64,000 bases of DNA, from the NCBI RefSeq assembly GCF_057098645.1, contig NZ_CM169472.1; one strand, 5' to 3'. This document shows, piece after piece, positions 80 through 64,000 of this stretch (position 1 is the stretch's first letter; every line of letters begins with the position of its first letter). A program made the translations under genes and the position numbers. The notes under the pieces were generated by a model. It was not told the origin of the DNA. It ran no database searches and saw only the letters and a program-made list of their open reading frames with translations.

Positions 80-168
80 AAACCGCCACCTTTATTAAGA
101 GTGGCGTATTGTACGCTGTGAACGCGTTGGGATCTACCTGTGGAAAAGTATGGGATTAAAAAAGCCGA

Positions 169-627
169 TCAGGGCTTGATGGTACGCATGATCGGGTTCT
201 GCAGGACGATCAGTGTCTCGGTGGACTGAATTTCATCAATTGTTTGGATCTTGTTGATAAGTACATGCTGGAGAGCATCGATCGAACGGCACATCACTTT
301 TATAAAGATGCTGTAGTGGCCGGTGGTGTAGTACGCCTCGGTCACTTCATCGAGGCTTTCCAGCTTTGCCAGCGCGGAAGGATAGTCTTTGGCGCTCTTT
401 AATATAATGCCGATAAAGCAGCCTACGTCATAACCGAGCTGCTTCGGGCTGACATCAATACGCGCCCCGGTAATGATCCCCGCCTGCTTCATTTTCTCTA
501 CTCGAACGTGAATCGTCCCCGGACTGACGCCAAATTGTTTCGCCAGTTCGGCGTAAGCGGTGCGCGCATTGCCCATTAATGCTTCCAGGATGCCACGGTC
601 CAGATTGTCGATTAGATAATTTTCCAT
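169..627 (-). CDS. asnC: Lrp/AsnC-family transcriptional regulator AsnC
   Basis: 152-aa ORF, divergent from asnA; protein recognised. Confidence 0.93.
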   Translation of the reverse strand: MENYLIDNLDRGILEALMGNARTAYAELAKQFGVSPGTIHVRVEKMKQAGIITGARIDVSPKQLGYDVGCFIGIILKSAKDYPSALAKLESLDEVTEAYYTTGHYSIFIKVMCRSIDALQHVLINKIQTIDEIQSTETLIVLQNPIMRTIKP

Positions 628-778
628 AGGATTTTCTTATGCAGATTGATGATTCATTCTATTTTAGCCTTCTTTTTTAATGAATCAAAAGTGTGTGAGG
701 CTTTTTATTGAATGATTATTGCATGTGTATCGGTTTTTGTTGCTTAATCATAAGCAACAGGACGCAGGAGTATAAAAA

Positions 779-1771
779 ATGAAAACCGCTTACATTGCCA
801 AACAACGTCAAATTAGCTTCGTGAAATCTCACTTTTCTCGTCAACTGGAAGAACGTCTGGGGCTGATCGAAGTCCAGGCGCCGATTCTTAGCCGTGTGGG
901 GGATGGCACGCAGGATAACTTGTCGGGCTGTGAAAAAGCGGTGCAGGTAAAAGTGAAAGCTCTGCCTGATGCCCAGTTCGAAGTGGTTCATTCACTGGCG
1001 AAGTGGAAACGTCAGACCTTAGGGCAACACGACTTCAGCGCGGGCGAAGGGCTGTACACGCACATGAAAGCCCTTCGCCCCGATGAAGACCGTCTTTCTC
1101 CGTTGCACTCGGTCTATGTAGACCAGTGGGACTGGGAACGCGTAATGGGCGACGGTGAGCGTCAATTCTCGACTCTGAAAAGCACGGTAGAGGCGATCTG
1201 GGCGGGAATTAAAGCAACCGAAGCTGCGGTTAGCGAAGAGTTTGGCCTAGCACCGTTCCTGCCGGATCAGATCCACTTCGTACACAGCCAGGAGTTACTG
1301 TCTCGTTATCCGGATCTCGATGCCAAAGGGCGTGAGCGGGCGATTGCGAAAGATCTTGGCGCGGTATTCCTCGTCGGGATTGGCGGCAAGTTGAGTGATG
1401 GTCATCGTCACGACGTGCGCGCACCGGATTATGATGACTGGAGCACCCCGTCAGAGCTGGGCCATGCGGGCCTGAACGGCGATATTCTGGTGTGGAACCC
1501 GGTACTGGAAGATGCGTTTGAGCTTTCTTCCATGGGGATCCGCGTGGATGCCGACACGCTGAAGCATCAGCTGGCGCTGACCGGTGACGAAGATCGCCTG
1601 GAGCTGGAGTGGCATCAGGCGCTGCTGCGCGGTGAAATGCCGCAGACCATCGGCGGCGGTATCGGCCAGTCTCGTTTGACCATGCTGCTGCTGCAACTGC
1701 CGCATATCGGCCAGGTTCAGTGTGGAGTATGGCCAGCTGCTGTTCGCGAGAGCGTCCCTTCTCTGCTGTAA
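779..1771 (+). CDS. asnA: aspartate--ammonia ligase (asparagine synthetase A)
   Basis: 330-aa ORF, protein recognised; divergent partner of asnC. Confidence 0.95.
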
Positions 1772-1775
1772 TAAT

Positions 1776-3227
1776 TTATCGCCGCCAGCGTCTGAGCAGG
1801 CGGCTTCGCATCCCGGTATCAAAGCGCCAGATATGATCGAAAATGCGCATGATGCCGGGTTTGCCGTGTGCCGACATCGCCACGGCATGAAAGCGATGCT
1901 GATGTACCCGCTGCAGCTCTTTCACTTTACTCGTCACGTCGTCAGGCAACCGCTGGGCGATAAAATCAGAAATCACCACCGCATCGGCATCAAACCATTC
2001 CCTGCTTTGCAAGCGTTCCATAATGGCGCGAAAACAACTGGCAAGATCGGTGCCGCCACGAAACTGCTGGCTTAAAAAACGGATTGCTTGTTCGATGCCT
2101 TGTGGGCCTGAAAGCTCATAACGGACGATCTCGGTGGAAAATAGCATAATATAACAGCGCCGGTTTTCAGCGAGAGCAATGCGCATCAAAGCCAGGCAGA
2201 ACGCTTTCGCACACTGTTCATTAAAGCCGCCCATTGAGCCGGAAGTATCCACGCAGACAATAAACGGTCCGCGCGGCTGTTCGTCGTAATCTTTATGCAC
2301 CACCGGGCGTTCGATCACTTTTTCACGCCACGACTCACCGTGCAGGCGATAGGTGAGCAACTGTTTTTCCACCAGCCGACGGTAAAACTCATACTCCAGT
2401 TCCGTTATCCCTAGTGTCGCCAGTTCTGGCGGCAGAAGACGTAAAATATCATCGCTTTGTTGCAGACCATCAACCTGCTCAGGAACCGTCGCCGGTTCGC
2501 GCACCATGGTGCGGAAGGTTTCCATCTGCGCATCGTTACGCGGTATTGATTTGGCTTCCCGAGAACGCCCCAGCTGCTCTGCCAGGCGTTTCAGTTCCGG
2601 CTGTTCGTTAAGAAATTCACCGTATTTCACAATCAACTGATAGTCGCCACGTTTAAGCTGACTGGCGCTCATATCCCACAGACGACCAGCTGCGGTATTG
2701 TTATCTGCGAGAATCGGTTCAAGTTGTCCGCTCAGCGTCATGCGTTCCTGAACTTCACTCAACAGTTGTTCGCGTTCTTCTTCTAATAGCTGTTGATTTA
2801 ACGTCGTTGCTTGCACGATCAGACTTAAACGCCAGCGCTGGAGAAAAAGCGTGTGTAACGCTGAAGTGATCGTGCTGTTAGTATCAACCAACTGCCGGGC
2901 TTGTTCTGCCCATGGGGAATTCAGACGATGCAGTAAGTCCATGATCTGTGGTAGCTGCACAATAAACTGCGGCGTGGAGAGGAGCTGGCTTTGCTGATAG
3001 CACATCACCTCTTCGGTGAGTTCCGGCGGGACTCGGGCATCTTTCAGCCGACTGCGCAGCGCCTCACGCCAGCGGGGAACATCATCAGTGATTGCCGCCT
3101 TCAGTCGTGGGAATTTTTCAAAGAAGACCGCCAGCTGCGGTGAGGCCAGCAGCGCGATGATCATCTCTTCGATCAATCCCTCTTCGCTGACGGCCAGCAT
3201 CACATTAAGCGTATCCAGCGTTAGCAT
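1776..3227 (-). CDS. viaA: VWA-domain protein ViaA, partner of RavA
   Basis: 483-aa ORF immediately downstream of ravA with a 7-bp overlap. Confidence 0.9.
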
Positions 3228-59056: not shown

Positions 59057-59078
59057 AAATCGGCGGCCGCCTGCGGTT

Positions 59079-59190
59079 GATTGCCGGATGCGATGCTGAC
59101 CGCATCTTATCCGGCCTACAGAACGCTACAATTTATTGAATTTGCAAGGCTTGTAGGCCGGATAAGGCGTTCACGCCGCATCCGGCAAGG
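59079..59190. repeat. pair of inverted REP (repetitive extragenic palindromic) elements
   Basis: TGCCGGATGCGATGCTGACCGCATCTTATCCGGCCTACA and, in opposite orientation, TTGTAGGCCGGATAAGGCGTTCACGCCGCATCCGGCAA, between convergent aslB and aslA. Confidence 0.85.
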
Positions 59191-59222
59191 TCAGTGTGGC
59201 CCGATGTAGCGATATCGCCGGC

Positions 59223-60878
59223 TTAATCAGATTTAATCTGCGCGCGTGGTGGATATTTTTTCAGGATCTCCATATACGCGTGCATTTCGGTCTGTAGCGG
59301 TACACCCATCGGAATATGGCGCACGCCGATAGAGTCGCTCTCCTGCGGATCGGTGTACAGGTTAAACACCGACGATCCGGCTGTTTGCATTACTGTGCCG
59401 GTGAATCCACCCTGATATCCGCTCTGGGTATAAGCGTAAGGTTGCTGAATCAGGACGTGATACTTGAATTCATCCATACGCACAGCAGCGAGTTTACCGT
59501 TGAGGAAGTAGTGCTCGGCCTTACGGTTAGACTGACCATTTGTTCCCAGGAAGAAAGATGTCTGGTCCACACCATCGATAAAGGTGGTTTTCGGCACTAA
59601 ATTCGCCACTTTCGCGCCAGGATGCCCTGCCAGATCCAGCGCGGTAGGGAAGAGATCTGCCAGATCGACAATACCGTCAGATTTACGCGGTTGGATCATC
59701 CCTTTCCAGTACACGAAAGTCGGAACGCGAACGCCGCCTTCCCAGGTCGAACCTTTCGCACCACGGAACGGTGTGCGTCCGTGCGGCGGTACTTCGGCTT
59801 CCGGTCCGTTATCGGAGGTAAAGACAATCAGCGTGTTATCAAGCTGACCGTTTTTTTCCAGTGCTTTATACAGATTAGCGAACACATCGTTCATTTCCAC
59901 CATGCAGTCGCCATACGAGGTGCGTGCCGGAGAGCTACCCGCATATTTGGCGTTCGGGTAGTTATCGAAGTGACAGCCGCGAGTGCCGTAATAGAGGAAG
60001 AAAGGCTTATCACTCTTCGCCATCTTGTCGAGGAACTTAACGCCATATTCCATCCAGCGTTGATCCAGATCTTCCATATATTTCGGCGTAATGTCGGCAA
60101 TGGCCTGTTGTTCGCCGCCGCGCACCGCATGAACGTCATCTTTGCTAAATGGTAATTGCTTGATGTATTCAGAACGGTCCGGACTCAGGGCCACTTCCGG
60201 GTTTACGTGAACGTCGCGCCATTCGGTGTACATATCAGACACCGAGTTAAAGCCACGGAAATCATCAAAGCCAACGTTCTGCGGCTGCGACTCTTTGTTT
60301 TCCCCCATATGCCATTTCCCGATGGCCTGAGTGACGTAGCCCTGATCGTGCAGCAACTGCGGCAGCGTGGTTAACCCTTGCAGCCCGCCCGGTTGCCCAT
60401 ACATTGGCGGCATCAGAATGCCGTGGTGGATGGAGTATTGTCCGGTGAGAATAGTGGCGCGGGTTGGGGAAGAGCTTGGTTGAGAATACGCCGAAGTTAA
60501 AATCAGCCCCTGGCTGGCAACGGCGTCGATATCTGGTGTATGGTTACCCACTGCCACGCCGCCACCGTTAAAACCGACGTCCATCCAGCCCACATCGTCC
60601 AGCAAGAAAACAACCACATTCGGTTTCTTACCGGTTTTTTTCTCAAGTTCTGCCAGCTTCTGCTGGGTTTCTTTATCCTGCGCCGGATGCTGCATTACTG
60701 GCATCATGTTGTCGGCAATAGTGGTCGCCGGTTTAACCAGATACTGGTTTGGGTGATCGTATCCGGCAAAGCCTTTGCGTGCGGTGGCAGTTGACGGGGT
60801 ATCTGCTGCGCTGGCCATGAGAGGAAGAGCGGCGGCGACAGCAACAACAAGACGTTTGGGTGAAAACGAAAATTCCAT
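59223..60878 (-). CDS. aslA: arylsulfatase-like protein
   Basis: 551 aa with signal peptide and sulfatase signature S-S-P-T-R in [15 protein letters not shown]. Confidence 0.92.
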
Positions 60879-61556: not shown

Positions 61557-62753
61557 CTACTGTGGTGGGTTGTTCTGCAACGTTAACATCAAACCGTCGC
61601 GACGCATCGCTGCAGCTTCTTCCGGCTTGTGCAGTCTGTCCAGCGCGTCGGCAAGCCATGCGTAATCGTAGGCGTCCGGACGTTGTTTCAGCGCTGCGCG
61701 GAAGGCGAGCGATGCTTCCTGCCATTCTCCGTGCTTCATCAGTGACTGGCCCAGTGTGCTCCACAACAGCGGGCGATCGCCGACGTTTTTGATTTGCTGG
61801 CGCAGCACTTTTTCCAGCTGTTCCGGATTGTTTGTTTTCAGTCGAGGAATCGGCAGCAGTAGGCGATCGTCGTACTGGCGTTTCAGGCCATCGATGATAA
61901 TTTGCTGGGCAGTATCATGATCGTCACATTCAATAAGATGTTCCGCCATTGCCACCTGCAACGCTACCTGATGACGCGTTTTCCGGCTTTGGTTTTTCCA
62001 CCAGTTACGCAAACCTTCGCTACCGTTATCGGCACGCGCCTGATCCATCAGGCCAATCCATGCCTGTTGTTCCAGCATTGCACGATGTTCTTCATCACCA
62101 ACATGGGCTTTCGCCATTGATGGGATAATATCCAGCAGCGAACTCCATGCTCCTGTGCGGATATACGCCTGTTCCGCCAGACGTAATACTTCCGGATGGC
62201 GTGGCGTAACTTCCAGCAGCTTATCCACGCCGTGGCGTGCAGCATGGTTTTCATTACGGGCCAGTTGCAGACGTACACGGGTGATTTCTACCGGAATGGT
62301 GTCATTGCCGGCCAGCTCCGCTGCGCGTTCCAGATGTTGGTTGGCGCGCGCTTCATCACCACGTTGTTGCGCGGCTTCGGCAGCCAGTAGATAGTTCACC
62401 ACCGGTTGTTCAGCGTGATCGGCATTTTTCGCCATCAGCTTTTCAACTTGCTGATAATCGCCTTCCGCCAGTTTCAGCAGCGCCTGTTCGGTCTGCTTAC
62501 GTGCACGGCGACGCTTACGCCCGACAAACCACCCACGGGTGTGCGCGCCAGTGCGGAAGATCCGCCGCAGTAGCCACTCAATGGCAAACAGCACTACCAT
62601 CGCCAGAATCAATATGATCGCCAGGCCCGTGACGCTGGTTTCGATATTGTAGTTGTCGGTCTGGATCAGCACATAACCCTGATGATCGGCAATCATCGGG
62701 CCAACCACGATCCCCGCAATCAGCAACACAAAGAGCAATAACACTTTTAGCAT
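61557..62753 (-). CDS. hemY: HemY protein (TPR-containing inner-membrane protein)
   Basis: 398 aa with N-terminal transmembrane segments. Confidence 0.92.
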   Translation of the reverse strand: MLKVLLLFVLLIAGIVVGPMIADHQGYVLIQTDNYNIETSVTGLAIILILAMVVLFAIEWLLRRIFRTGAHTRGWFVGRKRRRARKQTEQALLKLAEGDYQQVEKLMAKNADHAEQPVVNYLLAAEAAQQRGDEARANQHLERAAELAGNDTIPVEITRVRLQLARNENHAARHGVDKLLEVTPRHPEVLRLAEQAYIRTGAWSSLLDIIPSMAKAHVGDEEHRAMLEQQAWIGLMDQARADNGSEGLRNWWKNQSRKTRHQVALQVAMAEHLIECDDHDTAQQIIIDGLKRQYDDRLLLPIPRLKTNNPEQLEKVLRQQIKNVGDRPLLWSTLGQSLMKHGEWQEASLAFRAALKQRPDAYDYAWLADALDRLHKPEEAAAMRRDGLMLTLQNNPPQ

Positions 62754-62755
62754 GG

Positions 62756-63943
62756 TTATTCTCCTTGCGGCGCGGCTGCCGGAGTATCAGCTTGCGGTGC
62801 AGGTGCAGGTGCAGGTTTGGCTTCCGTTGCCCCCGCTGCCGGTTGTGCCAGCAGGTTACGCACGCGAGTCTGCATCAGTTTTTCTAGCATCGTCTGGCTT
62901 TGCAGTGTTTCCGGGAGATCCATCGAAATACTTTGCTGACTTAACTGGTCCACCTCGTCGAGGAATGCTTTGGTCGTTGCATCTTCAGTATCGTAATAAG
63001 CACGAACCCAGGTGGAGACATTCTCCAGTGCCTGGCGGTAAGTCTCTTCCTGATGACGCGGCACAGCTTGTGCGGCGACCAGCAGACGGGAACGAATATT
63101 TTCGCGCAGATAGATATCCTGATTTGGCGCTAACAGCGGTACGGCGGTGTCATCACGACGGCGAATCGTAATGAAGTTGTCCATAAAGTTCTGCCAGCTT
63201 TTTTGCAGATTGATACGCCATTCGCTGATGGAACTGGAAAGCTCTTCACCGTCGGAATCCATCGGCGAACCATCGCTGTCATTATCGGCCAGACGCAGGT
63301 TATCTACCTGATTTGAAAGCTGATTAAGCTTAAGGATGATGCCGTCATAATCCACCTGCGATACTGCAGAAAGGCTGGCGATATCATCGGTAATTGCCCG
63401 ACGAACGGTAATCAGACTTGGGTCATTCATATCCGCCAGGCTGGCGTCTGCACTTTTCAGCAACGCTGCAGCGGTCGTGACGTCCTGATCGCTCCACAGC
63501 TTCCGTCCGGCGAGTTTCACCAGAAAATCGGCCTGAGCCAGCAGCCAGGTTTTAGCATCGCTGCCGGAAATGGTGGCGACCTTTTGTTGGACTTCATCCA
63601 ACTGTTTTGCCAGCGTTTCTTGCTGACGATTCGCCTGTTCAAGCTGTGCAGCTTGTTGCTTGATAATGCCTTCCAGCTCGGCTTTTTGGCTCTCCTGGGC
63701 TTTTTGCAGCGCCGTGAGTTGGCTTGCCAGGGCATCGCTGGTGGCAGTCTGACTGACGGCCTGTTGTTTACCCCAGCCATACAACCCGACGCCTGCTGCC
63801 AGAGCAATGGCGATAGCCACCGCACTGAGAATCAGAGCGGTACTGTTCTTACTCTTCTTTTCTGCAACGACAGGTTGTGGCGTGGTGTCCACGGCCTCCC
63901 TGGTATCTTCAACCACGGCGGAGGTTTTTTCTTGTTCCGTCAT
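62756..63943 (-). CDS. hemX: HemX protein (membrane-anchored, coiled-coil, Pro/Ala-rich tail)
   Basis: 395-aa ORF; start overlaps the upstream stop codon (TAATG). Confidence 0.9.
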
Positions 63944-64000
63944 TATGGCTTCCTGTTATGAGAGTTATTATAATGCCCGTAATAGCGCATCGTTGTCAGC
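63943..64000 (-). CDS. hemD: uroporphyrinogen-III synthase, C-terminal fragment (gene starts beyond the window end)
   Basis: Open frame on the minus strand ending in a TAA that overlaps the hemX ATG; assigned from the expected hemCDXY order, the 19 visible codons are not diagnostic. Confidence 0.5.

Follow-up and report, generated by a model that had tools for sequence, protein, structure and literature searches.

The use of CVN014 in MLVA has largely been displaced by typing by whole-genome sequencing. This locus reportedly entered the literature with the generic E. coli MLVA scheme of Lindstedt et al. in 2007, a scheme that Lobersli et al. are said to have extended in 2012. Its primers and its sizing formula, (PS-111)/6, are published (PMC8143711, Table 1), and CVN014, which has a 6-bp unit, has been described as the “most polymorphic locus”, with nine alleles, a range of 4-15, a Nei diversity of 0.83, and no null alleles (PMC3519732). 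In addition, ST131 isolates go from 2 to 11 and vary widely at CVN014 alone, while ST10/ST167 isolates are given as “1” at this locus (PMC3407997). Allele numbers in some of the papers that used capillary sizing may sit one off the count of pure units used here, in which the K-12 type has 2.

Related systems occur in other genes and species. STTR5, located in yohM of Salmonella Typhimurium, is also an in-gene hexanucleotide that gains and loses whole units, mostly in single-unit steps, and that varies within clones (PMC5183578). The MLVA locus V5 of Yersinia enterocolitica is built from the unit GGTGCA. Phase-variable contingency loci likewise depend on slippage in a tandem array, but there the changes frameshift genes, whereas the unit of CVN014 is a multiple of three and produces no on/off switching.

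The array considered here lies in hemX, within a window of 64 kb (the whole stretch of DNA that was analyzed) that matches STEC O145:H28 genomes at 100% (RM9872, RM13514, RM12581, and others). It is a perfect hexanucleotide repeat of 3.5 copies at 62796-62816, on the minus strand with respect to its coding sense, seen both on reading the sequence and with Tandem Repeats Finder (period 6, 100% matches); the plus strand of this interval is GGTGCA GGTGCA GGTGCA GGT. The part that varies in CVN014 is the pure (CCTGCA)3 at 62798-62815 on the minus strand, which encodes Pro-Ala three times as HemX residues 377-382. The surrounding minus-strand codons, AAA CCT GCA CCT GCA CCT GCA CCG CAA, specify K-PA-PA-PA-P-Q at residues 376-384, and period 6 runs past the pure units by one nucleotide into the AAA codon and by two into the CCG codon. 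A sequence-only reading of the window had announced a Pro-Ala repeat, KPAPAPAPQ, near the HemX C-terminus, which these codons of the 395-aa ORF bear out. It had also placed a GCAGGT tandem at 62794-62816; the repeat itself stands, and its start was set two nucleotides too far to the left, as the “gc” at 62794-62795 breaks the period.

Within the 64 kb window, no other perfect repeat with a period of 5-12 reaches three copies, and a period-6 run of 18 nt or more appeared in none of 300 dinucleotide-preserving shuffles of the window. Because it is perfect, unique in the window, and unmatched by the shuffles, the array is real and not a product of chance. Moreover, the codons are the same in all units, which indicates recent duplication rather than selection for the Pro-Ala peptide.

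The hemX array is CVN014, a connection made by mapping primers and not through the gene name. A literature search for hemX or uroporphyrinogen in relation to VNTR or MLVA returned nothing by name, with an unrelated Salmonella SNP as the only result. The CVN014 forward primer, TCCCCGCAATCAGCAAMACAAAGA, matches the plus strand without any mismatch at 62711-62734, a site within hemY at its 5' end, and the reverse primer, GCAGCRGGGACAACGGAAGC, matches the minus strand at 62820-62839 with one internal mismatch. The two primers converge around the array, and each has one site in the window where 0 are expected by chance. The resulting in-silico amplicon is 129 bp; subtracting three units of 6 bp leaves 111 (129 - 3x6 = 111), the constant of the published formula, which in turn returns (129-111)/6 = 3 units. 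As the primers bracket the array, and both the offset of 111 and the unit of 6 fit, the two loci are one and the same, with nothing essential to distinguish them apart from the single reverse-primer mismatch in O145:H28. Candidate sequences for the PulseNet O157:H7 primers (VNTR-3, -9, -17, -19, -25, -36, and -37) had no site near the repeat, in a mapping in which the CVN014 primers were found as positive controls. The array was already known, and its recognition in this window adds little to existing knowledge of a locus that has served E. coli strain typing since 2007.

The mismatch under the reverse primer is an A>G change specific to the O145:H28 lineage, GGGGGCAAC as opposed to the published GGGGACAAC, which replaces Thr with Ala in HemX; it is probably without effect on the PCR.

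Regarding the genes that surround the array, hemX (62756-63943, minus strand, 395 aa) and hemY (61557-62753, minus strand, 398 aa) were both assigned from their ORFs and Pfam, and hemY begins 2 nt past the hemX stop codon. The hemX ORF matches the Pfam family HemX (PF04375) with E=9e-108 over residues 130-363, and since this domain stops at residue 363, the array falls in the Pro/Ala-rich tail formed by residues 364-395. The final hemX codons, CAA GGA GAA TAA, contain a Shine-Dalgarno-like GGAG at 62761-62764 on the minus strand, which from its position would act as the ribosome-binding site of hemY. In all 11 sequenced loci the GGAG motif is the same and the hemY ATG lies constantly 44 nt past the last pure CCTGCA unit, and the hemY CDS is untouched by the repeat number. 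The terminal HemX residues, ..APQGE, are conserved, and because their codons include the GGAG upstream of hemY, translational coupling may be what constrains them.

Toward the other end of the protein, residues ∼36-57 are hydrophobic and, judging by the sequence, probably make up one transmembrane segment, the only one. The RefSeq product name of HemX is “uroporphyrinogen-III C-methyltransferase”; Pfam returned no methyltransferase domain for this protein, PF04375 being the only match, and the name looks like a legacy misnomer. One preprint presents HemX as distantly homologous to Mic60 and without the mitofilin domain (10.1101/2022.06.14.496148). As to variation in the neighboring gene, in NZ_CP044293.1 (strain P276M) hemX has a neighbor whose annotation reads only “HemY N-terminal domain-containing protein”, and just a partial match was obtained; these two features suggest that hemY may be disrupted in that strain.

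The length of the array was followed in a collection restricted to E. coli and consisting of 5,426 complete genomes. A query of 221 nt centered on the repeat found the locus in 5,425 of them, with no match in the remaining one, and matched at 99% or more in only 34 genomes; one of the 5,429 matching places was plasmid-borne. In an evenly spaced sample drawn from the ranking of this query, the matched spans ran in 6-bp steps from 215 bp, through 221 and 227, to 305 bp. The 11 loci that were fetched contain 2, 3, 3, 4, 8, 9, 9, 12, 13, 17, and 20 units, with 2 in a K-12-type laboratory strain, 8 in a Nissle derivative, and 12 in O157:H7 Z1723. All 11 arrays are made of pure CCTGCA, with hemX in frame and free of in-frame stops, and the unit numbers derived from the spans proved right wherever they were checked against the sequence (2, 3, 4, 8, 9, 12, 13, 17, and 20).

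A second, independent systematic sample, obtained with the K-12 allele as the query, gave 59 usable rows. The commonest alleles in it had 5 units (13 rows), 2 units (10), and 6 units (9), followed by 10 units (5) and 8 units (4); 4, 7, 9, and 11 units were present in three rows each, 3 and 17 units in two rows each, and 12 and 14 units in one row each. Pooling both samples (98 rows) brings the number of alleles to at least 14 and puts the Nei diversity at ∼0.89, in keeping with the published 0.83; the allele frequencies are rough because the samples are systematic and non-random, and outbreak clones and laboratory strains are over-represented. Alleles of fewer than 2 units were absent from the 98 rows of the two systematic samples, and the lower bound of 2 units refers to these samples alone. 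The description of CVN014 as a highly polymorphic locus without null alleles is matched by its occurrence in 5,425 of 5,426 genomes, with units numbering from 2 to 20 and at least 14 alleles among the 98 rows.

The sequence-only reading had proposed a length polymorphism between strains, with six-base changes that keep the frame, and had suggested counting the units over many genomes, with an identical number in all strains as the contrary outcome. The counts differ among the complete E. coli genomes, from 2 to 20 units in 6-bp steps, and the frame is kept in all 11 sequenced alleles, so that a hypervariable site was correctly predicted from the letters of one genome. An origin of these differences in assembly artefacts was considered and dismissed: only complete genomes were used, the differences are multiples of 6 bp, and the count is 3 units in each of 17 independent O145 assemblies. 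Published data from fragment sizing, which are independent of assembly, also counter it (PMC3519732, PMC3407997).

Variation of the array is also observed inside single lineages. Among the genomes with the distinctive O145:H28 flank, 17 have 3 units, three have 4 units (RM11626-C1, RM12522-C8, and 95-3192), and three have 9 units (RM12761, RM13516, and Z1323HEC0399), while the flanks of the genomes with 3, 4, and 9 units are only 0-2 nt apart over ∼500 bp. O157:H7 genomes, in turn, have 5, 6, 12, or 17 units. The array evolves faster than its flanks, as slippage would predict, and it displays the properties of a VNTR, namely pure head-to-tail copies, alleles that differ by whole units, and unchanged flanks.

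The hemX gene of the window is, in addition, a mosaic when compared with both O157:H7 and K-12. Against these two references, the mismatches per 200 nt number 13-15 in 64000-63601, 0-1 in 63600-63201, 10-15 in 63200-62801, and 0-3 through hemY, and the two divergent blocks, 62801-63200 and 63601-64000, are ∼6-7% away from K-12 and O157:H7. The 5' block reaches the edge of the window at 64000, and its extent is measured to that point; the 3' block stops at the CCTGCA array, with near-identical hemY beyond. At full length and 99% identity or more, the hemX allele of the window is found in only about 23 of 5,425 genomes. Since divergence from E. albertii is greater throughout (∼10%), its type strain did not serve as the donor. 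The mosaic is a case of ordinary E. coli recombination mosaicism, and its boundary at the array hints that the array may be a recombination junction.

Another divergent segment of the window lies at 59065-59254, between aslA and aslB and downstream of aslA, with 26 mismatches per 200 nt relative to K-12 and O157:H7. Inside it, 59081-59188 (108 nt) can additionally be aligned to the reference in the opposite orientation, and for this reason it looks inverted-repeat or REP-like.

Outside E. coli, a scan for (CCTGCA)5 in one genome per species gave at least 120 loci, and among the matches listed only those of Escherichia albertii and Citrobacter sp. FP75, both with 6 units, are in hemX. The HemX tail of Citrobacter (proteins P0010/P0038/P0064 and P0065/P0055/P0061) is also rich in Pro, Ala, and Thr, with short PA or PAA runs of varying length. 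In one series, tails with APAPAAPQ, APAPAAPAAPQ, and APAPAAPAAPAAPQ belong to proteins of 394, 397, and 400 aa, respectively, and in a second series (AP)3-5 corresponds to 395, 397, and 399 aa. From these sequences, the HemX tail seems to be prone to repeats in more than one genus. No PA array was present in HemX of Salmonella among the proteins listed, and STTR5 differs from CVN014 on this account as well as in its gene and species.

Some CCTGCA arrays are unrelated to hemX. Escherichia albertii NBRC 107761 has a second one, of 12 units, outside this gene (L018:689-760), and a 6-unit array in Yersinia aldovae encodes the C-terminal (PA)6 of an unrelated ORF (L012:989-1024), in a locus where no HemX homologue was found. 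Given this different ORF and the lack of a HemX homologue at the locus, no claim is made that V5 of Yersinia enterocolitica is hemX.

Taken at its most probable, and we hold this with high confidence, the hemX repeat constitutes a coding microsatellite (VNTR), CVN014, which is driven by slippage and is near-neutral in a tolerant HemX tail. The head-to-tail CCTGCA units would misalign during replication, by slipped-strand mispairing, and whole units would be gained or lost, each event adding or removing one Pro-Ala dipeptide with the frame intact. Such changes in length would be tolerated because the array is placed in a low-complexity tail, past the HemX domain and upstream of a hemY ribosome-binding site that does not change. 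The repeat numbers might instead differ mainly through the import of whole hemX alleles by homologous recombination, and hemX is here clearly a recombination mosaic with one breakpoint at the array. However, genomes with near-identical flanks (0-2 differences per ∼500 bp) are 1 or 6 units apart, the differences always consist of whole units of pure array, and single clones (ST131, for example) differ widely at CVN014 only (PMC3407997), all of which makes import very unlikely as the main source. As the instability of tandem repeats in coding regions is a hallmark of phase-variable contingency loci, an on/off control of hemX or hemY was weighed too and rejected, for the alleles exhibit no shift in frame or in the spacing between the array and the hemY start. 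With a unit that is a multiple of three, the array cannot act as a switch of hemX; the frame is never lost, in-frame stops are absent from the 11 alleles, and the start context of hemY is constant (44 nt, GGAG), so that the probability left to this explanation is negligible.

A role for the length of the Pro-Ala tract itself, either by serving the HemX tail as a rigid spacer or through an effect on the mRNA upstream of hemY, with a number of units tuned by selection, would account for several of the observations. The locus is nearly universal (5,425 of 5,426 genomes), no allele in the samples goes below 2 units, the commonest ones are mid-range, with 5-6 units, and the same array recurs in E. 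albertii and Citrobacter sp. FP75, with a Pro/Ala-rich tail in the related genera examined. Nonetheless, we consider this role improbable, as a 10-fold spread in unit number (from 2 to 20) occurs among healthy isolates and inside single serotypes, a PA array is absent from the Salmonella HemX proteins listed, and all alleles share the ribosome-binding site of hemY at one and the same distance from the array; the peak at 5-6 units, for its part, may be mere over-sampling of clones. In a broader form, there is a small chance that the length of the tract sets the reach or flexibility of the HemX tail, or the coupling to hemY, within bounds imposed by selection, or that the array is a preferred junction for recombination.

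The preferred reading, slippage in a tolerant tail, leaves room for a limited requirement: the lack of alleles with fewer than 2 units, together with the array in E. albertii and Citrobacter, is compatible with some constraint for a Pro-Ala tract. For the biology of E. coli, slippage of this kind would mean that length variants accumulate at CVN014 as near-neutral variation, even inside single clones, and the STEC O145:H28 lineage, in which allele 3 predominates and alleles 4 and 9 occur as variants, may be seen as one such case.
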